DNA of 64,000 nt from Bilabrum cf. latius (Eukaryota), in NCBI GenBank assembly GCA_965178125.1, contig OZ237744.1:1054001-1118000 (forward strand), in the 5' to 3' direction. Below the pieces are notes generated by a model. The model saw only the letters and a program-made list of their open reading frames with translations. It ran no database searches and was not told the origin of the DNA. Made by a program: the position numbers and the translations under genes. This document shows positions 1,594 to 57,154 of this stretch, piece by piece; positions within the stretch are counted from its first letter, which is position 1; each line of letters opens with the position of its first letter.

Positions 1594-2128
1594 TTATGAC
1601 CCAGATCCATCTTCCATAGCTGCAGATCCTGCACTTGCTGCTGCCCCTTCCCCAGCGTCGGTTGCCTTGGCTTCACCTGCTGCTGCTGCTGGACCCTCCG
1701 TCTCGGCGTGCGTCGGAGCCTATCGTACGTAGAGCACGTTGTTGCATCGGATCAGCAGCTCTCCTAGCTTTCCCGCAAATTCACCGTCCAAAAATTCCTC
1801 GGCTTCCTGGAGCTACACGTTCATGTAGCTATCGAACGATGCTAGCTTGCCTGCGAGGCATCGAAAAGGACTAGCTGTCGATCACTCCCAAAGTAGGCAT
1901 AAAGTGGCGCAAGCGGCAGTAAAACGGTTGATCGCGGTGATTCTCACCTCGATACTCGGTACCCCATTTCAATTTCACGGCCACATTCTTGCCTACCAGG
2001 CCAGTTAGGAACGGCTTGGGGTTCACGATCATCTACGAAGCAGTAAGTAATGCGAGGGAATGCAATGACGTGGTCAGGAAGAGTGCAATCAAGGAAACCA
2101 ACAGCAAGGATGCACTTACTGTCGCCAT
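1594..2128 (-). CDS. SNRPF: Small nuclear ribonucleoprotein SmF (3 exons: 2128-2120, 2032-1948, 1850-1594)
   Basis: Spliced translation [73 protein letters not shown]... matches the SmF motifs NPKPFL, KLKWG, YMNxQL and [13 protein letters not shown] introns 2119-2033 and 1947-1851. TAG at 1813-1815 and 1720-1722; ends TAA at 1594-1596. Absent from the ORF track. Confidence 0.95.
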
Positions 2129-2234
2129 GGTAGAGCTCTCTCAACAAAAAGTGGCCTTGCTGGCTGCCGAGCAGCCTTGCGCTACAGTGCGGTAAATTTG
2201 GCAATGGGCAGAGTTGCATCACAATCACACGACA

Positions 2235-3543
2235 ATGAAGAGATAGGATGGGCGTTTACCGATATAGATTAGACCTATGAAGGCATAGCTCGGTGTTCTA
2301 GCGCGGGCAGACGGGTCTGCTCGATTCTAGTAGGGTGAGCACAGCTCAACTTTTGCTTGAAGGTACACGACGGGATCGGTATCACTCCATCGTCGCACTA
2401 CGCTCCAAAAGTCCCTACGCAGGTGATACTTCTATACTAGTAGGTATTCATGGTCCAGCTCCGCCGAAGCTGTCGAGGCTTGACGATGCTATTCGAATGT
2501 CCGTAGACGTATCGGTACGACCTGCAACTGGCCGGCCTAGCGTGGAAGACAAGACTCTTGAGGCCTACCTCATTGATGTAATCAGAGCAACCGTATTGTT
2601 GACAGAATATCCGCGGACCTAGCTAACTGTCGTGGTGCAGACGCTCTGCGACGATGGCTCGATACTCGCTGCTTCGATCTGCGCCGTAGGGCTGGCCCTA
2701 GCTGATGCAGGGGTGCAAATGCGTGGCATGCTGACGGCGTCAACGGTAGGAATTCTACCTCAGCACGCTTCAGACACCAGTTTGCCTTCATCCTCTGCAG
2801 CGGGATCGGGATCGCAGGGTAAGTTGGCAGAGGCGAGCGAGGAGCACCTGTCCCACGACGTGACAGCAGAGGAGAGCATGGCCTGCAGGGCAGCGTGCAC
2901 CGTCGCGTTCATCACAGGAACGACTGGAACCGACTTGCACTCCGTGCTCATGGACCTTAGCGGCACTTGTTCCCCGGATGAGATGGATCAGATGGACGAC
3001 GAGTTGCAGCGGGGTGCATCCACGGCCCTGTCCTTCCTGCAGGAAGCAGTAAGGGTCTGGGCGAGCACGCAGATGCTCGTGCAGGTGCCCACGATGGGAG
3101 AAGTTACCAAGCTGAGGATAAAAATCCAGGAGGGGGCAAGGGGAGCAGGGCAGGAGGACGACCTTCCCACCAGAGTTAAGCTGGAGCACTCGGCATCTCG
3201 GTCGACTGACTCTGCTACTGCCATTGCCAGTAGCAGCGGCGCAATCGCAGGCTCGGGTGCAGCCCCCATAGAGTCGGGGGACGGGTCCATCGCTGTGACG
3301 AGTGGGGCAGTCTCAGCAGAGATGGGAGCCATCGCAGGTGGGGCAAGTGTAGGGGCCAAGAAGAAGACGAGTGGGGCAGTCTCAGCAGAGGTGGGAGCCA
3401 TCGCAGGTGGGGCAAGTGTAGGGGCCAAGAAGAAGACGAGTGGGGCAGTCTCAGCAGAGATGGGAGCCATCGCAGGTGGGGCAAGTGTAGGGGCCAAGAA
3501 GAAGAAAAAGAGGAGAAAGAGAAAGTCCAAGCCTACTAGCTGA
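2235..3543 (+). CDS. EXOSC5: Exosome complex component Rrp46 (RNase PH family), intron 2335-2422, Lys-rich C-terminal tail
   Basis: MKR*DGRLPI*IRPMKA*LGVLARADGSARF**G|DTSILVGIHGP...EYPRT*LTVVVQTLCDDGSILAASI matches the Rrp46 motifs DGSAxFxQGDT, YPRT and DDGS. Six in-frame TAGs; ends TGA. Confidence 0.9.
3298..3504 (+). repeat. 69-bp tandem repeat x3 in the Rrp46 tail (TSGAVSAEMGAIAGGASVGAKKK)
   Basis: Near-identical units start at 3298, 3367 and 3436. Confidence 0.95.
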
Positions 3544-3739
3544 GTTGTTATGCGTTGCATTCATTACCAGACATGGTAGGTCAATCATGGAATCTGTTTC
3601 ACCTGAGCAATTCAGCCCATCCCGGGGATCACTTCCCCACCCTCCTCCTCTTCACCACGTCCCCTCTCGCCACCCGGGCCAGCACCGAGATGGCGTACCC
3701 TGCAACATGCACCACGTCCCCGCTGCCAGCGTCTCTCAG

Positions 3740-6700
3740 TCACTTCAAGGGATCCACTCCACCGGCATCCACAACTGCCTGCGCAAATGCACTGGATCTA
3801 ATAGCGATGGTCTGCAGCGCATTTGCAGCATATTCAGCCTCCTTGCCCTTGCTGGATCCCAGCAGACCCACAAGCCCCGCCAATGCACCTGCATCCACCA
3901 CACACTGCTTCATATCATCAGACCCTTCAGCCACATTACACAACGCCCCAGCCGCCCATTCAGCTTCCTCGCCCTTGCTGGATCCCAGCAGACCCACAAG
4001 CCCCGCCAATGCACCTGCATCCACCACACACTGCTTCATATCATCAGACCCTGCAGCCACCCTACGCAACGTCGCAGCCGCGCACTCAGCCTCCTCGCCC
4101 TTGCTGGATCCCAGCAGACCCACAAGCCCCGCCAATGCACCTGCATCCACCACTGCCTGCTTCGTACCATCAGACCCTGCAGCCACATTCCACAGTGCCC
4201 TAGCCGCGCACTCAGCCTTCTCGCCCTTGCTGGATCCGAGCAGACCCACAAGCCCCGCCAATGCGCCTGCATCCAACACACACTGCTTCATATCATCAGA
4301 CCCTGCAGCCACATTCTCAAATGCCAAAGCCGCCAATTCAGCCTCCATGCCCTTGCTGGATCCTAGCAGCCTCACCAGTCCAGGCAATGCACCTGCATCC
4401 ACCACACACTGCTTCGTACCATCAGATCCTGCAGCCACTTTGTACAACGTCGCAGCCGCGCACTCAGCCTCCCTACCCTTGCTGGACCCCAGCAGACCCA
4501 CAAGCCCCGCCAATGCACCTGCATCCACCACACACTGCTTCATACCATCAGACCCACGAGCCACATTCCACAGTGCAACAGCTGCGCACTCAGCCTCCTC
4601 GCCCTTGCTGGATCCTAGCAGACCCACAAGCCCCGCCAATGCACCTGCATCCACCACACACTGCCGCATACCATCAGACCCTTCAGCCACACTTGACAGT
4701 GTCCCGGCTGCACACTCAGCCTCCTCGCCCTTGCTGGATCCCAGCAGACCCACAAGCCCCGCCAATGCACCTGCATCTACCACACACTGCTTCCTACCAT
4801 CAGATCCTTCAGCCACATTCCAGAGAGCCGCAACCGCGCACTCAGCCTCCTCGCCCTTGCTGGATCCCAGCAGACCCACAAGCCCCGCCAATGCACCTGC
4901 ATCCACCACACACTGCTTCATACCATCAGACCCTTCAGCCACATTACGCAACGCCCCAGCCGCGCACTCAGCCTCCTCGCCCTTGCTGGATCCCAGCAGA
5001 CCCACAAGCCCACCCAATGCACCTGCATCCACCACACACTGCTTCATATCATCAGACCCTTCAGCCACATTACACAACGCCCCAGCCGCCCATTCAGCCT
5101 CCTCGCCCTTGCTGGATCCCAGCAGACCCACAAGCCCCGCCAATGCACCTGCATCCACCACACACTGCTTCATATCATCAGACCCTGCAGCCACCCTACG
5201 CAACGTCGCAGCCGCGCACTCAGCCTCCTCGCCCTTGCTGGATTCCAGCAGACCCACAAGCCCCGCCAATGCACCTGCATCCACCACTGCCTGCTTCGTA
5301 CCATCAGACCCTGCAGCCACATTCCACAGTGCCCTAGCCGCGCACTCAGCCTTCTCGCCCTTGCTGGATCCGAGCAGACCCACAAGCCCCGCCAATGCGC
5401 CTGCATCCAACACACACTGCTTCATATCATCAGACCCTGCAGCCACATTCTCAAATGCCAAAGCCGCCAACTCAGCCTCCATGCCCTTGCTGGATCCTAG
5501 CAGCCTCACCAGTTCAGGCAATGCACCTGCATCCACCACACACTGCTTCGTACCATCAGATCCTGCAGCCACTTTGTACAACGTCGCAGCCGCGCACTCA
5601 GCCTCCCTACCCTTGCTGGACCCCAGCAGACCCACAAGCCCCGCCAATGCACCTGCATCCACCACACACTGCTTCATACCATCAGACCCACGAGCCACAT
5701 TCCACAGTGCAACAGCTGCGCACTCAGCCTCTTCACCCTTGCTGGATCCCAGCAGACCCACAAGCCCCGCCAATGCACCTGCATCCACCACACACTGCCG
5801 CATACCATCAGACCCTTCAGCCACACTTGACAGTGTCCCGGCTGCACACTCAGCCTCCTCGCCCTTGCTGGATCCCAGCAGACCCACAAGCCCCGCCAAT
5901 GCACCTGCATCCACCACACACTGCACCATAGCATCAGATCCTGCAGCCAAGTTACGCAGTGCCCTAGCCGCGCACTCAGCCTCCTCGCCCTTGCTGGATC
6001 CCAGCAGACCCACAAGCCCACCCAATGCACCTGCATCCAACACACACTGCTTCATACCATCAGTACCTGCCGCCACATTCCATAGTGCCCCAGCCGCGCA
6101 CTCAGCCTCCTCGCCCTTGCCGGATCCTAGCAGACCCACAAGCCCACCCAATGCACCTGCATCCAACACACACTGCACCACACCATCAGACCCATAAGCC
6201 ACATTCCACAGTGCCCCGGCTGCGCACTCAGCCTCCTCGCCCTTGCTGGATCCCAGCAGACCCACAAGCCCCGCCAATGCACCTGCATCCACCACACACT
6301 GCTCCATACCATCAGACCCTGCAGCCACATTACGCAACGCCCCAGCCGCGCACTCAGCCTCCCTGCCCTTGCTGGATCCTAGCAGACCCACCAGTCCAGG
6401 CAATGCGCTCGCTTCCACAAACGTCGTCCGAGAGCTGCTGCACTCGTTGCATAACTCGCGAATCACGAATGCCGCCACTTCTGCGCTCGAATCAGCATCA
6501 TTGCATGCTTGCAGGCTTTGTACGATTCTAGTGACTACGCCGGCGCTCTGCAATACATTGTCCCTTACTCTTCCACGTATGTCTTCCATCAGTGCCTGCG
6601 CTCTTGACGGCAACATCACCGCTCCATCAAAGCCAGACGTCACCCGCAGCTGCCACAGCACCCGATGCACCCCATCCCAGCTCCCCCTCACCACCAGCCC

Positions 6701-8284
6701 ATCCACCACTGCCCTCACCCTGCTCACGGCTGCATCACACCCTACGCCTCCCGCCACCAATGCAGGCAGCCACTCACTGATATCGGAATCGACAGCATCT
6801 CCGGCACCATCTCGACCATTCGATCCAAGCAAACGGACCGCTTCCCCGACAGCCATCCTGTCCACAGGACGAACGCAAAGCAGGCTCTGCACCATGCTCA
6901 CATACCACGAGGGACGCTTCGATAGCTAGTCATGACCTGCCATTGGAGTCTCGCAGGCATCCAATGCAGCTGCCAGCTCGCAAGGCCTAGTCTGACTCCC
7001 GTCCTGCACACCAGATGGATACGAGTCTCCGAACGGGTGCTGCCCTCCCGTGGCCAGCTCGTGCAGCAGCACACCAAGCTCCCACGACGCCTGCTTGCCG
7101 AATGGCACGCATGCATCCATGTCTCCCGCCGCCCCCTTGTTCCACCCATCCAGCACCTCAGGGGCCAGGTGGGCCTGGTTGCCGCCCAGCCCGTCACCGC
7201 CATGCACCAGGTAGCGGTACGTGACTCGATCCAGAGCCTCCACTGCGGCTGATTCAGAAGAGCTGGCAGGACCATGGTGTGCCGCTGCAGGACCAGGCAC
7301 AGGTGGATGGGATGGAGAGGAGCCCGAGGCAGACGATGATGAAGAGGAGGAGAAAGAGTACGAGGAGGATGAGGAGGACGATGGCGGTGCTGCGCCAGTC
7401 ACAGCAGTAGCAGCAGCAGCAGACCCTGCTGCATCCACGTACACACGCAAGCAGCACCCGAGGTCGATCAGCACCGCACGCCCCACCCCCTTTGGACCAC
7501 CCCTTGAGTCCCACATCACGTTGTCCAGCTTCAGGTCACGGTGCACCACCCCGTGCTGCAGCAGGTGATGCACCCCCTCCGCGATGTCCCTCGACAGCTG
7601 CACAAGCACTTCGTCAGACAGAGACCCAGGATCGTCCCCCTCCACGATCTCCAGGTGATCGCACATGCGCCTCTGCAGCAGCTCCATGCCCACCATCTGC
7701 GCCTTGCGCGGGTGCAAAGGAGCGGGTCCATCAGCAGCCAGCACCTCCTCGTCCTCGTCATGATCGCCGTCATCGACGCACACCAGTGCAGGATTCGGCA
7801 GCATCTTCACCATCCACACGGGCGGCTTATGCACGCACTCGAACACCACCCGAGCCAGATTGCGGTGCTCGGGCAGTCGAGCGAGCACGTCGAACTCCTT
7901 CTGCGTCTCGTTGGTCTCCAGCCGGGACGTGGATAGACCCCAGTTGAACACGGCCTTCACAGCAATGTAATCATACTTGCGTCTGGAAGCTGCAGTACTG
8001 GCGCTACTGCTGCTGCTGCTAACGCTGCTGCTGCCGCTACCTCTCGGGAGCGTGACGCGAAACACTGCTCCGTGTCCGCCGTGACCGAGCAAGACAGTGC
8101 CCGATTTGGGCTTCTTGCATAGCCCCAGCAGCGGCTTGGCGAACATGCGTCTCTGAGCCTGAGTACCAGCCCTGGTCATGCGGTAAGCCTCTACGACACT
8201 TGCTGGCAGGGCGGGCAGGGGAATCGAAAGAGCATCAATGCAGCGGTTCGGTTCTGGATCGGGAGCGCTCCCTGAAGCAGCCAT
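3740..8284 (-). CDS. PINK1-like Ser/Thr kinase fused to an armadillo-repeat array
   Basis: Kinase motifs GHGGHGAV, AVKAVFN, HRDLKLDN, DLGCCL and GGNQAHLAPEV. TAG at 6926-6928 joins ORF 6926-8362 in frame to ORF 3740-6901, whose first residues (SLLCVRPVDRMAVGEAVRLL) supply kinase subdomain XI. About 21 42-aa ARM repeats follow. Confidence 0.85.
3760..6420 (-). repeat. 126-bp tandem array (~21 units) encoding armadillo repeats
   Basis: Unit VVDAGALAGLVGLLGSSKGEEAECAAGALxNVAxGSDGMKQC, highly similar at DNA level; boundaries approximate. Confidence 0.95.
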
Positions 8285-8501
8285 GGTATTGACTCGCTCG
8301 CAAGCACGCGACACCGTATTGATGCAAACGCGTGAACGATCGCGGCTTGACAAATCGCACACAGATCCTGAGAAAACGAGAAATTGATGGATGAGGAGTG
8401 ATTGTCGAGTTTTCTTGCTTCATCTTCCAACACGTAACCCAGGCAGCAATGCAGCAGCTGCAACCCAAGCTGCCTTTTCCGTCCCCCATCACCTCACCAA
8501 C

Positions 8502-11500
8502 TCAGGTCGCCCGCCAGCTGCCTCGCACGTCCTCCTCTGACCGAGTCGAGTACAGGTCCAGCCGGCGAGCTCCACCTGCAGCCAGACCAGTGCCAGACAC
8601 AGCTGCGCCTCGGTGTCGTGCTGTGCCCATCGCATTGACGCCGCCACGGCTTGATGTGCCATCACCAGCAGCTGCATGATCTCCATCCCCCACGGCCCCG
8701 TACAGCACCTCCAGGACGCCCCTCCTCACCCGCTGCCTATGCGGAGACACTCCCGCCAGCCCCGCCCCTGCCCCTGTCCCTGTCCCTCCCTCGAGTCCAT
8801 CGGCCCCGCTGGCATGCCTCGCCCCATCCAGAGCCTCCGACAGACCCCCCAGCACGTCATCATGCATCGCCCCATACCCTGGACCGACACCCACGCCAGC
8901 TGATGCACACAGCGGCTCGATGCCGGCCCTGCGCGCTGTTCCCTGGGACCCTCGCCTGGGCCTGGGCACGGGCCCGGGGCCCTCCCGCCCCACGCCCAGG
9001 CTGTAGTCGACCGCGGGTGCCTGGCGCGCCCCCTGCCGAGTGGCGCGGTCGCTCGGGTGCAGCAGCGGCGCATCGGCGCGCAGGGCGACAGAGGCTCCGG
9101 ATCGAGGGGGCCTGGCCTGCAGCTTGCCGCTGGAGGGGTGCACCGCCACGGTGCCTGACCTCGCTGCGGACTCCCGGCCCGTCCTGGCAGCCATGGTCAC
9201 GTCCCTCGGCCCTGTGGGCGCCTTGCTTCCCCTGCACTGCACTGCCGCGCGCCGCACGCTGGTGGGACTCACGTCCAGCCGATCGCCGTCCCTGCCCCAT
9301 GCCGCCCCGCTGCCCGCGGGGACACCCACCCTCAGCACAGCGGCCACCTCTGCTGCCGCCTGCCTCGCTCGGAGGCTCTCTGGAGCTGCGCCCATCCCAT
9401 GGCCCACATCCAAGGCACCGGCGCGGGAGGGAATGGCCCCTGCCCCAGCCAGCCCCCACGCCAGGATGGCATCGGCAGGGCCACCATCGGACCGGCCTTG
9501 CCCCGGGCCCCTCTGCACGTCGGCTGCCTCTCCCAGCAGCACGCCCCCGTCCGTGCCAGCGGGAAGCGAGTCGTCCCTGCCTGTCGCGTTGGCCAGCGTG
9601 CTGTACCGCTGCCCCCTGCGGGCCTTGCGCACGATGGCATCGGCTGTCTCGGGGGCCAGCGGGGGCCTGCAGCCCGAGGACGTGTTCGTCTCCATCCCGT
9701 CATGCTGCCTGGATCGAGCGTCACCGGGCTGGCCCATGCTGGCTGCGGGGACACGGGGCTGGTCCGGTCTGGAGGGCAGTGGGCCGTCTCTCTATCCTCG
9801 ATCCATGCCAAGCAGGATCCTCCTGGCCTCCTGTCTGTCCCCAGGTGCTGCATCGCTCCCGGCCAGCAGTCTCTCCAGTGCTGTGCCCACCACATCCTCT
9901 GCCCCCTCCTCACGCCCTGCATCCCCTCCCATGACCCCAGCCAGGGCAGCATCCTCCGCCTCCTTGTCCAGCTGCTCAGCCACCGCGGGTCTCTCACCGT
10001 GCGGACCCACGGCCTCGTCCCGTCCCGTGGCGAGATCCAGACCGAACCTGGCAGCAGGCGCCCTGGCGTGGCCCATGGCCGCAGTGATGGCAGAGGGGGC
10101 CGCGGCCGCTGAGCTCGCGGCGTCCTGCGGCCCGCGGTCTCCCTCTCCCTGTGCCACCGCGGCTCGCCTTGCCGACTCGATGTCACCGAAACCCACACGG
10201 ATGCGGGTGACTCGGCCCGGTCGCTTGCCACCGATACTCCGCTCAGCGTCCGGAGCTCCACTGATGAGCTGCACCACAGCCACGATCCTGTCTCGACCAA
10301 GCCCCGCCTCCAGCTTCGGCACGCCTTTGCCCAGGTCGATACGGGTGGCGCGATCGGCAGACGGGCTAGGCAATGCATGCGCCCCCGCGTCCTTCATGCG
10401 TCTCTCTCCCGCCCTGGCCTCGGCTGTTCCCTCGCGGCCCGTCTGCCTGCTCATGCCGGGGGCCGATCGCCGGCCCGCGGGCAGGGGCCGCGTGGCATCC
10501 AGCGCCCTCTGCGTCTCGCCGGCGCGCTGAGCAAATTCCTTAACGGCGGCAGGGTTGGCACCATACACTCCGAAGGTCCCCACGTGTTTAACCACCGGCA
10601 GCTCCCGGTCGATTCTCGCCTTCTCCGTCTCGCTGCCACCATCCCAGTCCATCGGGTCCTCGTCCTGCAGCAGCCGATCTGCTTCTGCCAGCAGTCTGCG
10701 GAGGGTGTTCTCCTTGCCGTATCGCCTTGCAACTTCTTGGGCGCGAGCATTCGCAGGGAGTCTCGGGCCCGCGTGCTCGTGCTCGCCCTGGCCGGTGGAC
10801 ATTGCCCTGAGCGCTCTGGCTTTGCGCTTGCGCCGCTTCACCTCGGCCCTCGACTCCTTCCTGGACCTTGCCTGCCTCGCCCATGACACGCCAGTCGGGG
10901 CCTGCCGCTCCACCGCCGTGTACAGGGGCAGGTGGCCCCACTCCGGCACGTGGAAATCCCCGATGAGACGGCCGATGCGCGTAAGCAACCGCTTTCGCCT
11001 CGCACCGATTTGGCTGGGGCCGAGTGGAGCCATGGAGCCCTGCCCCTGCCTCTGCCTCTGCCTGTGCCTCTGCCTGTGCCTCTGCCTGTGCCTGAGTTGC
11101 TCCTCCCTGTCGCCCGCAGGGAGAGGCGCGATCCGGCCCCCTCTCGCCCTAGGCCTATCGCTCCTGCAGCTCGCGCCCGGGTCCCTCGCCCTGGACAGCT
11201 GCTCGGCCTCTTCTTGAAGCCGACGGAGCCTCCGGAGTGCTCGCTGCGTGGTTGAGCCATCTCCATCCTGATCGTTGTTGTCTGAACCACCACCCGTAGA
11301 TGAATTGCCCATCCGCCGTAAGTACCGCCTGAGTCCCCTCTCCACTCGCTTTCGGATGCGCCTGTCTGGGTCACGGGTGTTCGCCTTGCCGACCTACCTC
11401 TCGGTCGCTCGTTCGTCGATGGCAACCAGCAGCCTAGCGCGTTGCTGGGCCCTTAGCCTGCCGCCGATCTCCGATCCGCTGCTCTCTTCACCGCCGGTGC

Positions 11501-14500
11501 TTGAGCCAGTCTCATCGCAGTCACTGCCGTACCGCAGAAAATGGGCCACGTCGCTAAACTGACCCATGTCTGCGAGAACAGCGAGGCGTCGGCTTCGGCT
11601 GTCTGGTGGGTGGGCATCCCTCGAGCCAGCTCTGTGAGTAGCAACACCGCCGCTGTCCCCGTCGCTGTGCCATCCTCGTGAAGCTGACGAGTCCTACGCG
11701 CCGCCACCTCGTGTCCTCCACGCTGTGTAGTCGAGCCGCCGCGCAGGCCCATCCCCGTCGGACAGCGAGGAAGCGGGGCTGAGGGGTCCCTTGGGAGTGG
11801 AGCTCGCTGGGAGGCGCACGCGGTCGGGAGAGGGTCCATTGGAGGCCGTGCTGGCCATGTCCTCCCAGTCCCTGCGCCGCTGCAGCGAGGACATGGCTTC
11901 GTCCACAGCATCCCTGGGATCATCGTAGATACCGTGGTCCGACATGCCCATCAGCAAGCCGAGGTGCCGCTTCAGGGCTTTGCCTAGTTGGCCTTGGTCC
12001 ATACCCGCCTGCCTTGACTTGGTGCCCTTCACGATCAACTGAGTCTCGAGTCTGTGCCGAGCCGTGCGCCAGGCGGGGTCCCTACGGTTCAGTCCCGTGA
12101 TACGACGCTCAATCACGGCGTTGTGCTCGGCGGCGTCGGCGCTGCACACGCTCGCCACGGTAGTGTCAGACGCTTCCATCAGGGACGCGCTTGCGTCTGA
12201 CGGTATGTCTCCATTCTCCGCTACCTCTGAATTATCATCATTGATCGGCACGCCACTCGATGGCTCGTTGGCTGCACGTGTCCGCTCACCCCTTGGCTGG
12301 AACAGCTCCGGCCGGTGCTTCTTCAGCAGTGCTCTCACCCTGTGCCTGATGTCTCTCTCGCGCCCGAATGCAGACCGCAGATACCTCCCTGCCCTGGCAG
12401 GCAGGTCCTCCTGATCTCTCCGTGCCTGCCTGCCTGCCTGCTCTCGCAACTTGGATCGCTCCAGCGCATCCCACGCGTCCACGAGAGCCTTCATGGCGGC
12501 CTATGCAGTGGCCGATGGCGGCACGTTGGCACCCGCCCACAAAAGCTCCCGCACCGTCTCACTGAGCGTCTACCCCAATTGCTGTTGCTTGCTACTCCAG
12601 GTCCCGCGCCGCCCCGAGTCGCCCTTGTTCCCTCCCCGCAGCTGCCTCACGAGCCTCCTCACCCCTTGCCTGGCCCACCTGGGCAGCTGGGGGAGCGCCT
12701 GCAGGACGGCAGCCAGGGCCTCCCACTCGGGCGTGTCGAAGCGGACCCCTCGTGGAAGAAGCGATGCTGGGGAGGGATGTGCCTGTGCTGCTCCTTGCGG
12801 TCGTCCTGCCCTGGCTCGATGCGATGCCCACCTGCGTGCTGGCGCGTCATTTCGTGTCTAATTGTTTCGCTTCCATCTGGAACGCTTGACGGAGCCGCTG
12901 GCTCGGCTGCTTCTGCTGGAGCGGCTGCTGTACCTGTCCCAATCATCTCCATCGGTGTCACTGCTGCTGCTTGTTCCCTCGGTGCCGGTCGAGTCCGCCT
13001 CTGCCAGCAGCAGCCTGCGATGGCGTGAGTCACCACACTCCTACCCTGTCCTCTCATCCGGGTCATCTGCCCCGCTCCAGTCCTCTAGGCCGTGCGGATC
13101 CTGCTCGCGACCATCCAGCCCCAGCGGGTCATCGGGGCCGCTGCCGTGCTCGTGCTCATGATCGTCCTCCCACTCTCGCCACTTCAGCTGGCCGGGCTGC
13201 CCGCGCTGTGTCCGATTAGGCTTTGCCTTGAGATCGCCGGCTCGGTGGCGAGAGCTGTTGCCACTTTTGCCAGTGCTGCTCTTGTTTTCCCCTGGTTGCA
13301 TCCAGAGGAACCGGACTGACCTGGACTGGCATGCCCCCAGGTTGCTGACCCCACGCTGGGGTCCAACCAAGCAGGTCTGACCTGTGCCCGTGCCTGTGGC
13401 GCCGGAAGGCCGGCCATCGCCCTCTAGGAGTCGCTGGTGCTCGCCGGGCCCAGGGGTGCTCCTCTCGATGAGGAGACCCGTGTGACCGCCAGGTTGCGAC
13501 CTTGAAGACGGGACACCTGCTCCGCTGGAGCGAGCACCGATGCCAGTGCTTCCGGCAACAGCAGATAATTCCGGCCCAGATTTACATGCAAGGGGTAGGG
13601 ACGGCCTTGCGCTCGGATCAATCTCGCTCAAAGGCAGACCGAACTGCTCGGCCACGCGGGCGAGCACTTGCTCGGCTCTGGACGACACTGAGTGAGCACG
13701 CGGCTCGGCTGTCCCTACAGGTGCTCCTTTCTCCCCAGGCTTCAGCACAGCACTTGACGTTGAAGATTTGGCTTGCTATCGCCTGCCAGTGGATCTGTTC
13801 GAGCCTTTAACCTGGATCCCGGCGTATGATGCAGCCCGGCCCGGCAGTGGCTGCACGGGCTGCCTTGAGGGCCCGCCCCTCCTCAAGTCAGCGGAGGGGC
13901 CTCTCGTCCTGGGTTTAAAGGTCTGCCCATTTTCATTCTTTGATTGCGAGCCAGTTGTATTGGACGGAGCATTTGTCGCATGGGAAAGAGGGGGCTTCAC
14001 GCGTGCTCCGCTGGAGGCAGCTGCCTGGTCCCGCTTTGCCTGGAGGTCTGCAAATACTGCGGGGTCCAGCCTGGCCTGCAGGCGCTGGGTACGAGCGCTA
14101 TATATTGTGGACGCACCACTTGGTTGGTGCGGCTGCGAGCCTAATCTGCGGACGTGCCCGCTTGCTGCGTTGCTGGTGCTGCCTCGCTGTCGAAATCGTG
14201 GAGCTTGCGGAATCGATGCCCCCCGAGTTGATGGGCGCAAGCAAGCGTATGCACCGTCAGTATTCAATTGCTGCTTTGACTCTGCACGCTCTTTCTGCGC
14301 ATCGAAACGAGCGCTCTTCGGAATGCAACCGCCCCGTGCAGTTGCGACGGAGCTGGTAGGATGAGAGCTTTCTGCAGCCACCGATGTTGGGCCATCAACT
14401 AATCTTGACGATTCAACACTGAAGCGGTTCGATCTTGCAATGAAACCGCCCGGTAACCGGGGAGGGCTCCGACGATCACTTGGATGGTCGATTCGTTTTT

Positions 14501-46440: not shown

Positions 46441-48915
46441 TCATTCGGACCACACGCTCTCAACCCCAAACGCGGCCAGGAAGAGCCCGACCGTGGCTGC
46501 CAGTACCCCGACTGTAGCTCCTTGGAGGTCGCTGCTGTCCCACAGTGCCAGCACCAGCAGCGTCGCACCCATAGCCAGCAGCAGCACCAGTCGCACGCCC
46601 AGCTACCTCTGCGTTCGCGAAAGGTCGGTTAGATCATATGCGCCTCCGGAGTCTTCGGCCAGCATTCGCGTCCTTTGCCTGCTTGTAGGCGCAAGAACCA
46701 TGCCCCTGTTGTCGCCCCGCGTGTCCCGGCCCAAGCTCGCGGCAACATCGAGTAGAGGCTGCTGCATAGTCCGTGGTGCGGCGCTTGAACATGGGCAGCA
46801 ATCGCACAGCGGCTGCTCCCCCCCATCCGATCCTTTCCATGCGTACGTCACCATCAGCACGCCCATGGCCGTGGCGATGAAGCAGAGAGACCCTCCCAGC
46901 AGCACGGGACCGTACGGCTGCCCCTTGAAATCAATTGACAAGGAAACCGCAAACGGAAGGAAGCCCACAACGGCGCAGATAGCCGAGTTGGTGCGGTAGA
47001 GCGACAGGCGCACGGGACCGCTGTGCTTGCGGCGGATGAGGGCGAAGAGTGATACGTGGGCCATCCACAGGGCGCCCACCAGCAGCACCGTCAAGACCCC
47101 GGACAAGAGGTCGAGCTGATGCTCGTGCCACCAGCAGAAGAATGTCGGCTGATCGCCGGACTTGATGGCCGGGCAATCCACCCTGGGTCTGGCCTTCAGC
47201 TCGCGCTGGAGAGTTGAGCCCGAATCGAGGGGCGATGACACGTCGTCGATGTCCGGAGTGGGCACGTTGATCTCGAGCACGATGAGCGTCGCGACGATGG
47301 AGTACACGCCATCCGTGAAGGACTCGAGCCTGCCTTGGTCCAGCAACGAGTACCGCCGCGCCACGTCGAGGACTTGTGGCAGGATGCGACCGTCCTGCAC
47401 GACAACGCTGGCATCAACGGGTGCAGCCGTCGGGGAGCTCTGTGCATGAGTGAGAGCGCCAGTCTTGGGTGAGCTCGGCTGGTTGATTGACTGCCGTCCT
47501 GCGATGGTGGCCCTACCATAGGCATGCACTGTCCCCTCGGAACCGCCTTCCTCTGTGAACTCCCCGCCGGTCGGTGCAGTGGCCAGTACTTCCATCGCAG
47601 CGCGGGCTGCTTGTTCCGACTGGGCCTCAGATCTATCATGCGGCCGATCGGAGGTTCCCACTGCCTAGGACTGCGCAGCAGACAAACCTGAGGGGGCGTG
47701 TTGCCCGCCTGAGGCATCGTCCGAGCTGCAGGCCCCGGTGTCTGCAAGAGGTAGCCGTCGCGGTTCTGTGGCCATCGCTGTCGAGAGTGCAATAGACCCT
47801 TGCTCTGCAATCGTATCGCCATGTCGTGGCGGCTGGGGGGCATCAGAGTCAATGCGCAGCATTGAATTGCCATCTCTGCTCCTGCTTTCGCCCTGGCTGG
47901 ATGCCTGGGCTTGCAGGCAGCCGTCGTCGCTGTGCATTGGCCCAGCCCCTCGCACCAGCTCTGACGGCCGGCCGGCGCAGCAGGTGACGTAGACGTGCCC
48001 TCCGACAACTGCTTCAATCAATCCCGATGCTAGCGCCACTGCTATCGCTGGTATAGAGTGTCTGCTGTGCAGCACAAGTAGAGACGCACCGAGCACCAGG
48101 ATTCGGAACGAGAAGGCGACCCAGGCCCGCTAGGTTGCGAGGCGAGCAGCTGCCAGCGCAGAAACCCCGTGACTGCGCCAGTGCTGCAGTCCGCCGGTTC
48201 GTGGCCTGCCAACTGGGCTCAGTATTGGTGCGGCGGTGTCCTTACTACCTCCACTGGGACCCTTTTGCACTTCGCCGAGGAGGGGCCACACAGCCTGCAA
48301 CTGCTGGCCAGAGCCCGGGCACTCGGCGGCGCACAGGTCGTGGATGAGCATGGCCAGGGCAACCATGGCGAGCGAGATGATAAATAAGCCTGAGCTCCAC
48401 AGGTCAGAGTCAGACTCTTGAGCGAGGTACGCCGACGCGACCGCTCCGGCAATCGGCAGCACCGCAACAGCCGGCAAAAGCAGAATAAGATTCGCAACTA
48501 CCAGCTTGCGTGGAACCTTGCGCACGTTCAACATACTGAGGACATGTGCAGTCCATATTTCGGCCACTACTGTGAATGTTGCTGCATAGACGACCAGGGA
48601 ACCAGACTTCAGGCGAACTGCATGCTCGACCTCCTGGCATGCCCGTTGGGAGTCGTGCCCGCCGGCATTGCATTGTGAAATTGCATCCTGCAGCCGGTAG
48701 ACGGCGGAATCTTTGATATGTGCTATGGCAGATATAGACAGCGTTGCAGCAATCGCCAGAAAAGCATCCACGTAGGCCCGAAATCGATCTCTGCGGAGTC
48801 TTATGATTGGCCTCAGCAATCAAATCAAGTCTCTTCTGCTCCCAAACAGGACGGAAAGCTGCAGGCGGATACACCACTTTGCTTACACATCAAGCAGTAC
48901 ATCGTTGCGGGTCAT
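46441..48915 (-). CDS. TMEM175: TMEM175-family endolysosomal K+/H+ channel, two-repeat type (intron 48886-48791)
   Basis: Two signature helices, DRFRAYVDAFLAIAATL and RLESFTDGVYSIVATLIVLEI. Pieces joined by TAG at 48130, 47665 and 46603; ends TGA. Confidence 0.85.
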
Positions 48916-49151: not shown

Positions 49152-50495
49152 TCAGAACCCCACGAAGGGGTCCTTGCCCCCCTCGAACTCGGGGAGCGGC
49201 ACCTCGTCCTCCTCCTCCGGGTACGGGTCGAAGTTGCTCGTGTCCGTCTTGCCCTTCACCTTGGGCACGATGGGTGCGGGCAGCTCCCCCGCGACGAGCT
49301 TCCCAAAGTCGAAGCCCAGGAAGAACTTGTGCTCCATGATGTCGTCGGCCCCGCGCCTCAAGCAGCCGTACCTCCTCGTGAGATCCGCTGTGAGCAGCCG
49401 CTTGATGAGCGACTTGCTTCCTCTCTCGAAGTACTTGGGGAACCGCACCTTGCCCTCGATGATCTGGTTGTAGATGCCCATCGGGTCGTCGTCCACGAAC
49501 GGGGGCTGCCCCGCGAGCATCTCGAAGAGCAGGATGCCCAGGGTCCACCAGTCCACACCCTTGCCATGGCCCTTGTTCAGCAGCACCTCAGGGGCGATGT
49601 ACTCGGGCGTGCCGCACAAGGTCCACGTCTTGAACGCGACCCGCTTGGCAAAGCCGAAATCCGTAATCTTGAAGTACCCGCGCTCGTCAAGCAGCAGGTT
49701 CTCGGGCTTGAGATCTCTGTAGATGATGCTCTGCTTGTGCAGGTAATCGAAGATAGTCACGATTTGCGCCGCGTAGAACATTCCGTCCTCGTGCTTGAGC
49801 CGAGTGGCCTTGCGGAGGTGAGTAAAAAACTCGCCACCGCAAATGTACTCGATCGCCAAGTAGAGGTACCGGTCATCCTGGAACGTGCCCCCTAGCCGGA
49901 CAATAAACGGATGGTCAAGTACATCTAAGATTTCTTTTTCGGAAAGAATGTGCTCAACTTGTTGCAAGCGCACAACTTCGCATTTCTTCAACATCTTGAT
50001 CGCCCACACGCCCCCCGTGGCCTTATGCGTTGCAAATCGCACTCGTCCAAAGCTCCCAGTTCCAAGCGTTACTCCTAGTTTGAAGTCTTCGAGAGAGCAT
50101 TTTCCTAATTTCCAACCTGCAACGGGTAAACGCAAGCTTGCAAGGATGGCAATCCAGTGACTCGCTCCAAGCAGTGTCCAGAGCGCAGATGCCCATAATA
50201 TGCAATCTTCTATAGTTGAGCAGTTCTAGGTGCCATGGTGGCAATGTGGAACACATGGCACAGGGACGCATTCGCAACCTCGGGAGGCAGTTTGGTGGAT
50301 CCCGAGGCCAGCGTGAATCTAGCTACCCGTACAAACCCTTGAGGGGATGTCATAGCACGCAAGGGTATATGTCATAATGAACAGTACGAGGCGATTAAAC
50401 GCAAGCAACCCGCCAGACAAAGCAACACGATGAGGAGCAGGGTGCTGGATCTCACTAGGTTTGGCTCCCGAAGCTGCCCCAGACGCGCCTGCCAT
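49152..50495 (-). CDS. PKA-C: cAMP-dependent protein kinase catalytic subunit (intron 50455-50117)
   Basis: LGTGSFGRV, YRDLKPEN, DFGFAK, TWTLCGTPEYIAPE and DTSNFDPY. Short first exon MAGASGAASGAKP is inferred. No TAG; ends TGA. Confidence 0.95.
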
Positions 50496-50717: not shown

Positions 50718-53700
50718 ATGCTATCGCAAGATGATTCGATTGCAATATTTGATGGTCGTGCTCCTATTTAGTATTCTGGAAAGAATTTAGTTAATTTTAC
50801 CAAGGAAGCGGATCAGAGCTTGCAAGCATCAACGCGGAGAGCAACTGAGCTGCTCGCCTCGACACAAGCTGCGACCTCCAACCTAAACTAGGCGGCAAAA
50901 CGGGTGTTAAATACTTCGATTATTCCAGGAATGAGACATGATCCCTATTTTGCCGTAGCATCTAAGCCTCGTCAACGTGATATCGATCATGAGAAGTGCC
51001 AAGATCGAGCTACTGCCGGTGGTATGGAAATGCTCGGAGCGACTGAGACCCTGTTTGGTCTGGGAATCACAGTGGTTGTGAAATAGGAATGTGAGATTGC
51101 AGGACTCCCGTGCATGGCTACGGTATCACTTTCGGCCAGTTCTGCCCACCACCTTGTTTCACCCCGAATAGCGCAGCACTGTGCCTGTATCCGACCGAGG
51201 CATTGCTGCAGCTTGAAAATTTAGATGACGCGTCAAGAGCAGATCCAAGCAAGCCTGCACGGGACGAGCAAGCAACGAGCGACCGGCACTTGGATTCCCT
51301 AGACGTGCTGACGCGCGGCTAGGACGGTGAGGTGCGCCGTGTTGCTCCGATCGGATGCCTCCCGCAGTGGCCATCCCCGCTGCTCTGGGCCGATGCCCTC
51401 TCCCCTAGAGGCGGGCGCGCCCCAGGCGCCTCCTCGCCCCTGCACTCGCGCGAGCTGCGGCACCTGCTGGACAGCATTCCTGGCGCGAGGGCCGGCGGGC
51501 CCACGGAACTCCTCCACGGGCCCATCACGCAGATCGCAGCGCTGCCGCGAGTTTGCACGCCGCGCATAGGACCAAAGGCGCTTTGCTCGTGGGTGGCGGC
51601 GACCGACGGAAGGCGGGTGTGGCTGTACGGCTTTCGCGCGGACGATGCCACGAGTCCGTCTGGCCTCTCCATTGGAAGTAGCTCGGCCAGCAGCAAGCCG
51701 CGAGCTGGCAAGGTTCTGGTTGTGCCGGTTAAGCTAGATTTGCCGCCAGACCTTACGGCTGACAAACGGTCGAGCCTCGATGACGGCGTACTTCCCCCGC
51801 ACTCCGTCACTTCCATCCAGTTCACACCAGACGTTATGCTGGCCGACATGGACCGCGGCACCAAGACCACAATATACACCTAGCACGATGTCCTGGTCGT
51901 CATATCAAGGCCCATGGCCACTGCGTGGGTGCTGGTCATGCCCAAGCAAGAGGGCATGCGGACCGGCCGCGTGCAAGACTTCTCCGGGCAACACCGCGAC
52001 GTGGCGGGAGACCGCGGCCAGGCAGCAGATGCGCAGGACACCAGCACGCAGCTGGAAGTGGAGGTGCCGACAAGTAAGTCAGGCATGGCAATTCTAAGGC
52101 CCCAGTGGCAAATAGCGTGTCCAGGGCTGTCGTGCGCCACGGTACCTAGGGGGTTACGGGGCGTACGTGACAAGAATGTGTATGGGGGGAAGCCCGTCTG
52201 GCTTGGGCTATCATCGGGCGAGGTATTTGCGACAACCCTTCCGGTCCGAAGTATCTCTCGAGGATTCAACACAAAGGGGCCGCTGGTCATAAACCCCTTA
52301 GCCCAAGATGCGCAGCGGCTGTCTGCCCCAGTGGTCCATCCCCCCCTGGAGCAGTTGAGTGAAGTAGCAAGATCGCGAGGCGCGCAGCTAGAGTGTCATT
52401 GCATATGCGACTTGTCGCCTCACTAGGGTGATGTTGTGAACTGGTTGGGCGTAAATAAGCCGGCCTTGCGCGCTACGGCCAGGCCTGGTAATGACCCGGA
52501 AGATCGTCAAGCCGCCGTGGACACGATCTGGAGGTGCAGCAATGCACTTGCCCTCCGCAGCACCTTTGGTTCGTGGCTCGACACCAACGCTGGTGTCGAT
52601 CCTCGGCTGCGGACCTTCATCGAGAGCAACCATTCGCCGGAGAGTCGCGCATCTGCCTATGGAGCTCTCAGGGCTGCGCTACAAGCTGTACCCAGCCGAA
52701 AGCATAAAATTGAGACTGCACTTGCGGAGGTAGTCGCACATGGACCCGAAGATGCGTCCGCGAAGAATCGGCTTAATTTTCTGCGGCTCTCGTGGGGCAC
52801 ATTCCTCGACCATGCGAGGTCTGTGCTGGAGATGCAGCCAGCCCGAGACACTTGCCCCATGCTGGCAATAGGGTGGAGGGTTCGGATGCCGCATTCTGCG
52901 CACGCTGCGGCGCATGCTTCAATGCTCCACCGCAGACTATTGTCATTTGCGCAACGTGCGTTGCAGACGGTGCATGCTAACGTGCCATCTAGCTGGCTCC
53001 CAGAAAGCGAAGCCACTTAGGCTGCTGTCCTCATGGAGGCGCAGTCGGCTGGGTTGCGGCTGGACGCGGTGGCAGGTGACGGTTGCAACCACGTTTTTGC
53101 CGTCGCGGAGGTTGGTGTGTCTGACTGCCTGACGCCACCACCGCCAGTCCAATGGTTCACAGGCCTGGACCGGATCGATAGCGAAGTGAAGCCTCCGAGA
53201 CTTTGCGACAATGTCGATTTCAAGCAGTGGCAGTGTGGTCGCGCCACACAGAGTATGAAGCCCATGTGGAGGCTTACTCTGTTTCCAGACTTTGCTTCGA
53301 GTGGAAGTCGCACCTTGTCGCACAGTGCTCGGTGGGCCCAGCTCCTGCAGCACTGCAACCTGGGGTACAGGGCTGCATCCAGCGGGACTGGGGACGATCT
53401 GATCCGCGTAGCCGTGAGGAGCATCGCCCGGCCGGTGGTGGAGCTTAGGAGGCCCAAGTACATTCGAGCCTTTCAAGCATGCGCCTTTGCGAGATGGATG
53501 GCGCAGGACGCGCGCCGTGAGGACTAGACGAAGCACAAGGATGAAGACGGCGCTGCAGCATCCGCAGCATCACCAGGCTGGGGTGCGCCGATACCAGCGG
53601 ATGGGGCAGCAGCGATTGCGCCGGGACTAAGCACAGAGCGGGCTCTTGATGCTATCTCAAACTCGCTGGATCACATCGTTTCACGATATACCAACGACAA

Positions 53701-56264
53701 GCGGGTGCCTGCGGAGCACCTCATCATGGACTGCAGGCACCGGCTGGCATGGCTCGCCCGGGCCATGGCCCCTTGCCTTGACTCAGACGCAAAAATAGCA
53801 ATCCTTGGTGGCGCCTCTTCAGACGCGGTGGTGGCAGCTGCATAGTCGAACGATGCTAAGACTGAAGCGGGCCAGGCTGCTCCTGAGCTTGGCGCTGGTG
53901 GAGGAAGCTCCGATGAGTTGGCCCGGGACTCCAAGGCTGCAGATGCCATTCGAAATGCTGCACAACAGTACAAGGAATCCAACGCTCTGTGGGAAGTCGT
54001 GCCAGGCACGTCCTTTGGACCGCGTACCACGGAGCAGACCCTAGCTGACAGCGCTGCTCCGCTGCAGGACCCCTAGGACTGCCTCGTGATTGTACAGGGT
54101 CAGGGAGTGACGGAGGCACCAGTCGGCGCTGATCCAGCAGCAGCTGAAGGTGGGCCGCAACAATCGCCAGCACCGTGTGCCATCGATGCGATGCAGATGG
54201 TTCATGCTGCGGCGCATGGACTTCCTGCTTTGCGCAGCTCTGGTCTGCCTACCGTCGTTTCGGGAGTTGCAAAGCCCGAAGAAGATCCAGTTTCAGACCG
54301 GCCTGATCGACCGGAAGATGACGAAGATGAAGTCAGTAGCGCCGATTCGCGGGCAGCCGACGGTAGCGGCACGGACATCGACACGAAGACCCCCATGTCC
54401 GCTGAAGCATTCGCTGAACTTGTCGCGACCAGTGTATTCGGAGCTGCCTCGAGCCCGCCCACGCTGTTGCCAGGACCTGGATTGGATCCCGTCGCCCAGC
54501 TGCTGCAGCAGAAGTCAGAAGCACCAGGTCAACCGTCCGGTGCCGCATCCGCCCTGCAGCAACCAGAAGTCGCCATGGCTAGTTACTTGAGCTCACCACG
54601 ACTTGCACCGATTGTGGCCGCGCTGCAGGTGGCTCAGAAGGCCGGGCAGACTATCGCGTGCACCTCCCGGCTGCAGGCCCGATTTGACCCAGCGGCCGGC
54701 CTCGTCGTCATCGAGCACATCAGGTCGGTTCCTCGCAGCCAGGAGGCCATCGTCTCAGCTGCACTTGCATGCTTGCCCGGCATGCAGCAGGCCTTGCGCA
54801 CGATAGTCACGGATGCGACACGTTCTTGGGGAGGCCTTTTGACTTTGGCTAGAGATGCCCCGGACGGGCCTCGTGCGCTGTCGCTGGACCCTTCTGGTCT
54901 GCCTCTCCAGATGCTGTGCAACGTGCGCGTGCTCGAACCTGTACCAAGTGCTCTTTCGGGCATGCGGTTGGACCGTTGGTAGGAGCGGGTTCAGCAAGCA
55001 CAGGCGGCTTATACTCAGGCAAAACGAGCTTATTCGGCACCACAGGGTTGCTTGCGAATTCCGGGCATGGATCTACCGGGACTACCCCGACTCCCTTTAG
55101 GCGCAATACGAGGGGTTCGGCACATCATCCCAGAAATTGGAGGAGGTCACCACAAGGGCTAGCACGGCAGGGTTGGGGTGGTGGGGGGCTGCCTCTAGTA
55201 CACGGGCGCTCCCTATTATTCGGCGCACGCTTCGCTCGTGGCCGGTGCTGACCTCGCCTTTGTCTTCTGCTCCAGGGACGCAGCCATACCCATTAAGTGT
55301 TACTCTCCCGAGCTCATCGTGGTTCCTTCGTTCTCCGATCAACCCTCGGGTGACGCCTCCGCGCCAGGCTCACCAGCGGAAGCCCTGCTGCCGTATGCCT
55401 CCAAGCTGAGCGCAATGGTGGTGGGCCCCGGATTGGGCCGTTCAGAAGAAGCTGTCAGGTTTGCTAGGGCCGCCATTCACCTGGCGATCGAATCCAGGAT
55501 CCCTCTCGTGCTGGATGCCGATGCTCTCTGGGTGCTGGAGCAGGACTTGAAAGGAGGAGCAGGAGGATCAGGACGCTCGCACGATGGCGCGGAGAGCCTG
55601 AGGGAGCTGATTCAGCGCGCGACAGCGCCGGTGGTTATGACACCGAATGTGGCAGAGTTGAAACGACTGTGTGAGGCTCTCCAAGTTGCAACGGGCGAGT
55701 CCGAGTCCGAGAGAGTGGGCGAGACATCAATGAGTGGCAGCGGAGCCAGTGGTGCGACCGGCTCGGAAGGTCCCGCCAGCGGAGCTGGGTCCAGTGATCC
55801 AGCCCCTGGGGACGCGGATCCCTCCTCATCTGCCCAAGAACGGTCACTCCCCGCCAAAAATGACTTGCCCACGCGCTTTGCTCGGTCGTATCTTCGCGAG
55901 AGGTCACAAGCGCCCGGCCCCGCTGCCTTGGATGGCAGTGTTGGGGCCCCCTTACTGGCTGTGCTAGCCAAAGGACCCGCTGACAGAGTGCGCGTGGAAT
56001 ACAATTCAGGCTATGGAGACAATCACGGGGATGGCGAGGACCAAGGGGGGCAAGCGACGCACATTGGTGTATCCTCCGTGGCAGTGGATGTGCACAGCCC
56101 TTTCAGCGGTCTCAAGAGGGTTGGAGGGCAGGGTGACGTGCTGGCTGGTACTCTGGCGACTTTCCTCGGTTGGGCGTGGGGTCGGATCAAGCGAGAGCGA
56201 GCCGGTGCAAGAAGCGAGGCCTCTTCGGGATCTAGCGAGGGAGATGTGGGTGACAAGGCACCAC

Positions 56265-56299
<35 letters not shown>

Positions 56300-57154
56300 C
56301 CTGCTGGACCAGGTGAGGCTGTCGCGAGGAGCGAGGGACTGGCCTCTGCATCAACCTGCGAGGGACTGGCCTCTGCATCAACCTGCGAGGAATCCCTGAT
56401 GGCTGCCGTCCATTCGAGGCGGCTGTTCAGCGATGCTGTGTAGCAGGAGCTGGCCATGCTTGGCCTGCAGCTAGAGGCATCAGCGCAAGGGGCGCTGCCT
56501 AGACTAAGGCCGGTGGGGTATGAGATGCTCGAGCTGGGGAGGGTCATGCGTCAGTTCAAGAGCCAGAGAGGGGTGAAGCCAGCGCAAAAGCTCAGTCTGG
56601 CAGGAAGGTGGCCACAGGCTTGGGAACTTGGATACACGCAGGTGGGCACCTCGTTCTGCGACGTGGGGCCCCAACCGCCGATCGTTGCAGACACTGCGTT
56701 CCTCTGGACAAAGCAAGTGGACGCAGGTGCGGGTGCGGGTGCGGGTGCGGGTGCGGGTGCGGGTGCGGGTGCGGGTGCGGGTGCGGGTGCGGGTGCGGGT
56801 GCGGGTGCGTCACCTGGTCTCTCTGGTGCTGCGGGTCATGATCAGGTCTCTATGGGACGAATTCAGGGTGGTAGGATGGCCTATGCGTGCCAGTCCCTTG
56901 CACCGAGCAGTCAGATGCTGCAGGAGGGGCAGGGCCCCGGTACGGCGGTAGACGTGAGGCAGCCCTGTGCGGCCGTGGCGTGTGCCTGTGTGGGCGCCTC
57001 TGCAGTGGCGCGGCGGGCCTCAGCGCTGGCATACAGTAAAGCTAGGAGGGCGATGACTGCGCCCGATGTACTGAAGTGCGTGGGAGAGGCGTTTGTTGAG
57101 CTGTTTCCGGAAAGCGAGCTGGCGCCTGACCCCGCCGAGCTGGTGGGGTCGTGA
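50718..57154 (+). CDS. NAXD: Large protein: unknown N-terminal region (~1400 aa) in frame with a C-terminal ATP-dependent NAD(P)HX dehydratase domain (probable intron 51123-51211; start uncertain)
   Basis: From ~55110: IIP...HKG*HGRVGVVGGCL*YTGAPY, YSPELIV, VVGPGLGR, VLDADAL, TPNVAE and KRVGGQGDVLAG. Upstream ORFs 51110-54982 are in the same frame, separated only by TAG. The NAXD domain call is secure; the fusion is less so. Confidence 0.75.
56726..56809 (+). repeat. (GGTGCG)14 microsatellite encoding a Gly-Ala tract inside the NAXD insertion
   Basis: Perfect hexamer run visible in the sequence. Confidence 0.95.

Follow-up and report, generated by a model that had tools for sequence, protein, structure and literature searches.

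The stretch of DNA analysed here (the window) comprises 64 kb of contig OZ237744.1, positions 1,054,001 to 1,118,000, from the Bilabrum cf. latius assembly GCA_965178125.1. It is eukaryotic nuclear DNA in which UAG is a sense codon, translated in bona fide genes. Glutamine is by far the best reading of this codon. We consider it likely that the window represents GC-rich nuclear DNA of an aerobic protist in which UAG encodes glutamine, UGA serves as the usual stop and UAA as a rare stop, an arrangement matching NCBI translation table 15. A code of this type had been proposed in a first-pass annotation of the same DNA; our analysis supports the proposal, with UAA termination resting on thin evidence.

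The G+C content of the window lies between 56 and 73% across 4-kb bins and is about 63% overall, while G+C at third codon positions (GC3) ranges from 0.53 to 0.89 per gene. When TGA was taken as the only stop, the longest frames comprised about 4,275, 2,189 and 2,062 codons; the standard code breaks these frames into pieces. The gene set used throughout consists of 21 traced models with 18,145 in-frame codons. Twenty models are complete at the 3' end, and the remaining one, Brr2, extends past the window edge, its stop lying outside.

In-frame TAG codons and the absence of TAA

Within the 21 models, 78 TAG codons but neither TAA nor TGA were found in frame. At least one TAG is present in 17 of the 21 models, and TAG makes up about 10% of the glutamine-type codons (78 of 743 TAG, CAG and CAA codons). 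Their distribution along the coding sequences is even. In 15 of the 16 TAG-holding models examined, the region 3' of the last TAG has a coding score; the sixteenth, a MORN-repeat gene, scores -0.05 per codon after its last TAG, yet shows MORN-repeat homology there. Hence, on coding score or MORN homology, the view of the first-pass annotation that no gene needs TAG as a stop was confirmed for 16/16 models. The homology-anchored C-termini, those of Arp3, tyrosyl-tRNA synthetase (TyrRS) and the kinase, all end in TGA and none in TAG, these TGA codons coinciding with the ends of the homologues or of the Pfam profile. Among the complete genes, 19 of 20 terminate with TGA and one, SmF, with TAA (1594-1596), the same count as had been obtained before.

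The earlier observation that TAA never occurs inside a gene was likewise reproduced (0 of 18,145 in-frame codons). The +1 and +2 off-frames of the same coding DNA contain 32 and 50 TAA, respectively, per 18,124 codons each, and the unannotated 7.6 kb contain 49 TAA in 7,542 trinucleotides. The DNA itself is thus not short of TAA. The zero count is also free of circularity, because open reading frames (ORFs) delimited by TGA only share their 3' ends with the gene models; within these TGA-bounded true frames, TAA occurs only upstream of start codons, in three genes (8502-14687, 27711-29072 and 57432-63998).

The amino acid specified by TAG was read from aligned columns and from a relative. With the gene next to SmF (the first gene) as query, a single 5.4-kb metagenome contig, L001, was returned, which ends inside the orthologue of this gene and extends away from the SmF side. 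The two proteins are identical at 219 of 261 residues (84%), and their codons show 90 synonymous versus 42 non-synonymous differences. In L001, CAG stands at the position of both TAGs of the first gene (703 and 1009; 2/2), and this orthologue comparison is the strongest evidence on the meaning of TAG. L001 also carries a gene with four IQ motifs (2379-3066, minus strand), in which TAG occupies the Q position of three motifs and a normal glutamine codon that of the fourth; the frame ends with ...EDAEA TAA (2425-2427), and TAA TGA follow 13 codons later. In the window itself, the column of the first SmF TAG (codon 44) holds Gln in 4/4 solved SmF chains shown in the Protein Data Bank (PDB) alignments. 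At the dehydratase TAG 55160-55162, situated in an HKG-x-x-G motif, Gln was found in 105 of 150 NAD(P)HX dehydratase homologues, Ser in 22 and Glu in 7. The SmF, dehydratase, L001 orthologue and IQ-motif columns therefore agree with the first-pass annotation, which had taken TAG as a sense codon for glutamine. The second SmF TAG (codon 75) falls in a column with Gly in the three PDB alignments naming a residue there, and the alignment does not reach the first MAK16 TAG.

Transcript evidence covers 20 kb of the window (1-20000) and consists of contigs of the public runs X5, X6 and X7, with the DNA run X1 as comparison. The X5, X6 and X7 contigs lack seven segments that are present in X1 and bounded by GT..AG (CT..AC on the minus strand), and hence derive from spliced RNA. 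The contigs fix two introns in SmF (1850-1946 and 2033-2119, in X5 and X6), three in MAK16 (16266-16819, 17416-17501 and 17616-17715) and one each in a small gene (18121-18218) and the Band-7 gene (19384-19478); the lengths of these GT..AG introns range from 86 to 554 nt. Across the TAGs at 703, 1009, 1720 and 1813 the spliced contigs are colinear with the DNA, and the TAGs are unedited. Over the whole 20 kb a single difference was listed, at 4380. The RNA contigs extend 110-126 nt past the stops of two genes. Two other organism labels (B and C) are attached to these three runs, although they contain spliced transcripts of the organism of the window; half or more of the contigs compared are at least 99% alike. 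The organism therefore either lives in association with other sequenced organisms (alongside, on or inside them) or is a contaminant of their cultures.

The end of SmF and alternative readings

SmF is the gene on which TAA termination was judged. Its frame, spliced with the introns 1850-1946 and 2033-2119, closes at the TAA 1594-1596, which is unedited in RNA contig X5 record 8. The 41 codons between the second TAG and the TAA have a GC3 of 0.34 and a log-odds score of +6.83, an ordinary coding level (coding mean 8.2, s.d. 7.0) that is reached by 1% of non-coding windows. The tail after the second TAG is taken to be coding. The 10 codons past the TAA have a score of -3.9. Such a low value is seen in only 1.3% of coding 10-codon windows, and 72% of non-coding 10-codon windows lie at or above this value. 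As a control, windows flanking the TGA stops were scored, and values as low as -3.9 were obtained for 0/19 windows just before and 5/19 just after the stop. From these scores, termination of SmF translation at the TAA appears to be supported, although the support is thin.

The 3' end of the SmF transcript was not placed by the contigs: the X5 contig runs from 249 to 1849 across both convergent genes, and the X6 and X7 contigs break off next to eight consecutive G, at 1518 and 1515. The first gene (plus strand, TGA 1510-1512) and SmF (minus strand) converge with 81 nt separating their stops. As the X5 contig is unbroken over both, the 3' ends of the two transcripts probably overlap.

The decoding machinery can be outlined by analogy to known codes. 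A tRNA-Gln(CUA), one base removed from the normal CUG, would pair with UAG and not with UAA, and eRF1 would no longer act on UAG while still acting on UGA and UAA. The dominance of TGA may be due to GC pressure.

Several observations weigh against UAG as glutamine with UAA as a rare stop. The column of the dehydratase TAG 55196-55198 points to Glu (98 of 150 homologues; 28 have Asp and 7 Gln), that of the Rrp46 TAG is variable with Ser or Thr, and that of the second MAK16 TAG is variable as well (Q, N, H or R). A TAG belonging to L001 itself, in the orthologue of the first gene, faces GTC (Val) of the window. Regarding termination, the GC3 of SmF is low (0.56), which blunts the codon-usage test, and the sole TAA-ended gene of the window has a TGA 11 codons on, so that a short read-through product is possible. 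The TAA of the L001 IQ-motif gene is a weak case, scoring +2.49 before and -0.35 to -1.05 after the codon. As for the machinery, ARAGORN found no tRNA gene in the 64-kb window, there was no match to an Rfam family in the window or in L001, and no eRF1 gene was seen within the window; a stretch of 64 kb samples only a small part of a genome.

Two competing explanations assign another role to TAA. If UGA were the sole working stop, UAA would be unassigned or avoided, serving neither as a sense codon nor as a stop, and translation of SmF would either pass its TAA slowly or leakily as far as the TGA, or the TAA would be a recent mutation. We regard this as a rather unlikely case. It can draw on the fact that TAA provides only one of 20 stops and that the next in-frame TAA or TGA after each of the 20 stops is TGA (20/20). 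However, the 10 codons behind the SmF TAA score as non-coding, a rare readable TAA would have landed within the last 11 codons by chance at about 220 of 18,000 positions (roughly 1%), and the L001 IQ-motif gene gives a second apparent, if weak, TAA end. Moreover, one TAA in 20 stops fits the share of TAA among off-frame TAA and TGA (82/674, 12%), and GC pressure alone can therefore explain the dominance of TGA. The opposite possibility, an ordinary code with both UAA and UAG (UAR) as glutamine (table 6), in which TAA is hidden by high G+C, deserves very little credence. The composition of the window, in its 4-kb bins as in its GC3 values, would suit such masking, and most known reassignments change both codons, as far as the available portions of two papers describe them (PMC5304391, PMC11687900). 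Yet A-ending twin codons are well used: CAA occurs 117 times versus 548 CAG, and the A share of Gln, Glu and Lys codons is 4-43% by gene. TAG is commonest in the low-GC3 genes, where CAA is also common. With TAA as a synonym of TAG, about 15 or more TAA would be expected beside 78 TAG, and none was found. The probability of this outcome, calculated from the A share of Gln, Glu and Lys codons per gene and multiplied over genes, is 1.7e-11; Gln codons alone give 2.5e-11, and a pooled test on 13 long ORFs (~15 TAA expected) gives P ~1.5e-6. With 0 TAA at P ~2e-11, a UAR=Gln code in which GC bias hides TAA is excluded at the scale of the window.

The other two explanations question whether TAG is always read through. 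In the context-dependent ambiguous codes of Condylostoma and Blastocrithidia, a codon can be both sense and stop; were the window to follow such a code, SmF would end at the TAG 1720-1722 and its TAA would lie in the 3' untranslated region (UTR). A stop after ...NNVLYVR would indeed give a normal SmF core length (solved chains have 72-94 residues), the 41 codons from TAG to TAA are low in GC3, and a run of 41 codons without a stop is not unusual by chance. We nevertheless hold this explanation to be improbable. The same 41 codons score at a level seldom reached by non-coding windows, and the same mRNA would have to read the TAG of codon 44, inside the Sm fold, as glutamine. The coding score or repeat homology behind the last TAG in all 16 models and the homology-anchored C-termini, none of which ends in TAG, also speak against it. 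In Condylostoma, very short 3' UTRs have been proposed to mark true stops; the RNA contigs of the window, in contrast, continue for 110-126 nt past the stops of two genes. Least credible of all, and refuted by the present data, is that the TAGs are not translated, the genes being pseudogenes or the TAGs being removed by RNA editing or splicing; nothing was found in its favour. Pseudogenes would not account for 78 TAG in frame beside 0 TAA and 0 TGA, nor for the purifying selection seen in the 90 synonymous and 42 non-synonymous differences to L001. As to removal, the spliced RNA contigs keep the TAGs, and no joint removes one.

Known codes, lineage and significance

UAG and UAA are nearly always reassigned together, according to the available portions of PMC5304391 and PMC11687900, to which the comparisons of this section are limited. 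UAR is read as Gln in many ciliates, some ulvophyte algae, hexamitid diplomonads and Amoeboaphelidium (as cited in PMC5304391). The UAG-only exceptions described there include the rhizarian exLh (Leu), Iotanema (Gln) and Scotinosphaera (Ser) (PMC5304391, PMC11687900). Further exceptions are Protocruzia tuzeti and two phyllopharyngeans (Gln), three phyllopharyngean metagenome-assembled genomes (Leu) and one ciliate with two different amino acids (PMC11687900). The ciliates with UAG alone as Gln are Hartmannula sinica, Trochilia petrani and Protocruzia tuzeti, with several independent origins (PMC11687900). In sum, the splits known from these sources comprise one rhizarian, one fornicate, one green algal genus and several ciliates (PMC11687900, PMC5304391), and the statement of the first-pass annotation that UAG alone has been reassigned in Iotanema and some phyllopharyngean ciliates agrees with both papers as far as available (PMC5304391, PMC11687900). 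A CUA anticodon has been argued to read UAG alone (PMC5304391, PMC11687900). Concerning termination, Iotanema was reported to use 104 UAA versus 15 UGA stops in 119 complete transcripts, and exLh 56 UAA and 15 UGA (PMC5304391); for phyllopharyngeans, a preference for UAA as the stop is described (PMC11687900).

Iotanema spirale (Fornicata) resembles the window in that UAG alone is reassigned, to Gln, in that UAA is not sense and UAG never a stop, and in that a tRNA-Gln(CUA) is the predicted decoder. Its main stop is UAA, whereas the window has one TAA and 19 TGA. Furthermore, Iotanema is an anaerobic metamonad, whereas the window has Tim17-family and Band-7 genes and a weak, sub-cut-off complex I match, its G+C content is 56-73% and its Arp3 and TyrRS group closest to stramenopile sequences. 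The UAG=Gln ciliates share the identical codon change; the window differs from them by its nearest named homologues, which are stramenopile, its G+C of ~63% and its introns of 86-554 nt, and from the phyllopharyngeans also by TGA, rather than UAA, as the preferred stop. In exLh and Scotinosphaera, UAG and UAA are likewise uncoupled and UAA is still a stop, but UAG encodes Leu and Ser, respectively, whereas the TAGs of the window stand at Gln sites and swap with CAG between relatives. Table 6 codes also read a stop codon as Gln, probably via a mutated tRNA-Gln, but TAA is sense there and absent from the 18,145 in-frame codons here. Unlike the ambiguous codes (Condylostoma, Parduczia and Blastocrithidia), the window is without a codon that is both sense and stop at gene ends.

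Lineage was assessed from two single-gene trees, with support from the Shimodaira-Hasegawa-like approximate likelihood ratio test (SH-aLRT) only. The best match of Arp3 was an environmental protein with 93% identity; the next matches had 64%, and the named ones, mostly stramenopiles, ~60%. In a quick tree the Arp3 of the window was placed on a long branch (1.13), near ochrophytes. The named matches of TyrRS were ochrophytes and oomycetes (64-67%) plus one red alga and a few plants, and in the TyrRS tree the window attached at the unresolved base of that group. These sequence comparisons tentatively suggest a stramenopile-related placement. The named nearest homologues include no fornicate, ciliate or rhizarian. 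The top match of Brr2, bearing a contaminant label from a sturgeon assembly, shows only 43-44% identity and is uninformative on lineage. An aphelid origin (Amoeboaphelidium, an algal parasite with UAR=Gln) was rejected, as TAA is not sense here; also against it, the named top matches of Arp3 and TyrRS are mostly stramenopiles, not fungi and their kin. A literature search for a nuclear code change in stramenopiles, which did not cover supplements, found no report. The window does not belong to one of the known carriers, and the lineage seems new. A new independent origin of UAG-only reassignment is plausible.

Nuclear code changes are rare outside ciliates, and a split between UAG and UAA is rarer still. 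Each split is a test of the coupling of the two codons by wobble pairing and eRF1. Compared to Iotanema, exLh and the phyllopharyngeans, as described in the sources above, the window differs in that the DNA is GC-rich and UGA, not UAA, carries nearly all termination, which raises the question whether eRF1 still handles UAA well after the loss of UAG. The interest for code evolution lies mainly in this UGA-dominated termination and in the seemingly new lineage. There is a modest chance that the DNA derives from a stramenopile-related lineage with effectively a single stop, in which UAA would be a near-vacant codon that is not sense, hardly terminates and possibly acts as an inefficient stop. 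A single-stop reading, if true, would make the organism a natural counterpart of engineered one-stop-codon organisms, with UAA between meanings. On the practical side, gene callers using the standard code would cut most genes at a TAG (17 of the 21 models), leaving proteins truncated or missing in databases.

Genes and other features of the window

The features are listed in Table 1. Frames named from Pfam are the tyrosyl-tRNA synthetase, the PKA-like kinase, Brr2, the Rrp46-like subunit, the TMEM175-like channel and the WD40 protein, together with the kinase with armadillo repeats, the NAD(P)HX dehydratase domain and the Band-7, MORN and Tim17-family genes. The name of the Arp3-type actin-related protein was taken from homologues, and the identities of SmF and MAK16 from PDB matches. 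The small gene at 17932-18596 has a weak match to the complex I 21-kDa subunit, under the Pfam cut-off.

Table 1. Features of the window, in order of position
Feature	Position	Strand	Details
Gene without Pfam match, last exon (5' end outside window)	250-1512	+	TAG at 703-705 and 1009-1011; TGA stop 1510-1512
SmF	1594-2128	-	exons 2120-2128, 1947-2032 and 1594-1849; 116 codons; TAA stop 1594-1596
SmF in-frame TAGs	1813-1815; 1720-1722	-	codon 44, conserved Gln of YMN-x-Q-L; codon 75
SmF TAA	1594-1596	-	sole TAA stop among 20 complete genes; + strand reads TTA
Next in-frame TGA past SmF TAA	1561-1563	-	11 codons on; stop if TAA is read through
Rrp46-like exosome subunit, exon from 2422	2422-3543	+	1 TAG; TGA stop
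Kinase with armadillo repeats	3740-8284	-	1 TAG; TGA stop
2,037-codon gene without Pfam match	8502-14615	-	9 TAG, 0 TAA; TGA stop
241-codon gene, signal-peptide-like start	14762-15487	+	3 TAG; TGA stop; RNA contigs reach ~15597
MAK16	15712-17779	-	4 exons, 17716-17779, 17502-17615, 16820-17415 and 15712-16265; 2 TAG; TGA stop; joints in X5, X6, X7
Small gene	17932-18596	+	one intron, 18121-18218; 0 TAG; TGA stop
Band-7/SPFH gene	18777-19800	-	intron 19384-19478; 1 TAG; TGA stop
MORN-repeat gene	20940-21506	-	1 TAG; TGA stop
Gly-rich gene without Pfam match	21694-22875	-	6 TAG; TGA stop
Tim17/Tim22-family gene, last exon	23182-23517	+	0 TAG; TGA stop
WD40 gene	24102-27500	-	12 TAG, 0 TAA; TGA stop
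Arp3	27711-28916	-	401 codons; 0 TAG; TGA stop at end of full-length homologues
4,252-codon gene	29364-42122	-	11 TAG, 0 TAA; TGA stop
Tyrosyl-tRNA synthetase, long N-terminal extension	42470-44140	+	TGA stop
Gene without Pfam match	44752-46332	+	527 codons; 11 TAG, 0 TAA; TGA stop
TMEM175-like channel gene	46441-48534	-	3 TAG; TGA stop
PKA-like kinase	49152-50495	-	2 TAG, in N-terminal part; Pkinase_C match reaches last residue before TGA
Long gene, C-terminal NAD(P)HX dehydratase domain	51836-57154	+	10 TAG, including 55160-55162 and 55196-55198; TGA stop 57152-57154
Brr2 helicase, runs off window	57912-63998	+	2,029 codons; 1 TAG, 0 TAA

Two classes of codon usage adjoin in the window. Arp3, TyrRS, Brr2, the first gene, the giant gene and the Band-7 gene form a class of high GC3 (0.80-0.89), and the remaining genes one of low GC3 (0.53-0.72), in which TAG is enriched. 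The giant frame (29364-42188) is intronless and comprises about 4,274 codons with a GC3 of 0.80; its sole Pfam match is a weak one to separase (Peptidase_C50) near the C-terminus, below the cut-off (E = 0.0013). In the TyrRS frame (42410-44140), the catalytic domain is preceded by an N-terminal extension of ~250 residues rich in Ala, Gly and Lys. The frame 51095-57154 (2,019 codons) holds the NAD(P)HX dehydratase domain at its C-terminal end, from about residue 1,360, and the ~1,350 residues N-terminal to it matched no Pfam family; the frame may represent an unusual fusion, or one frame holding two genes. In the gene at 3740-8284, a long array of armadillo-type repeats, nearly identical and ~40 residues each, lies behind the kinase. 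The assemblies of three runs connect 3858 to 6641, omitting 2,782 nt, and the number of armadillo repeats is therefore either collapsed or variable.

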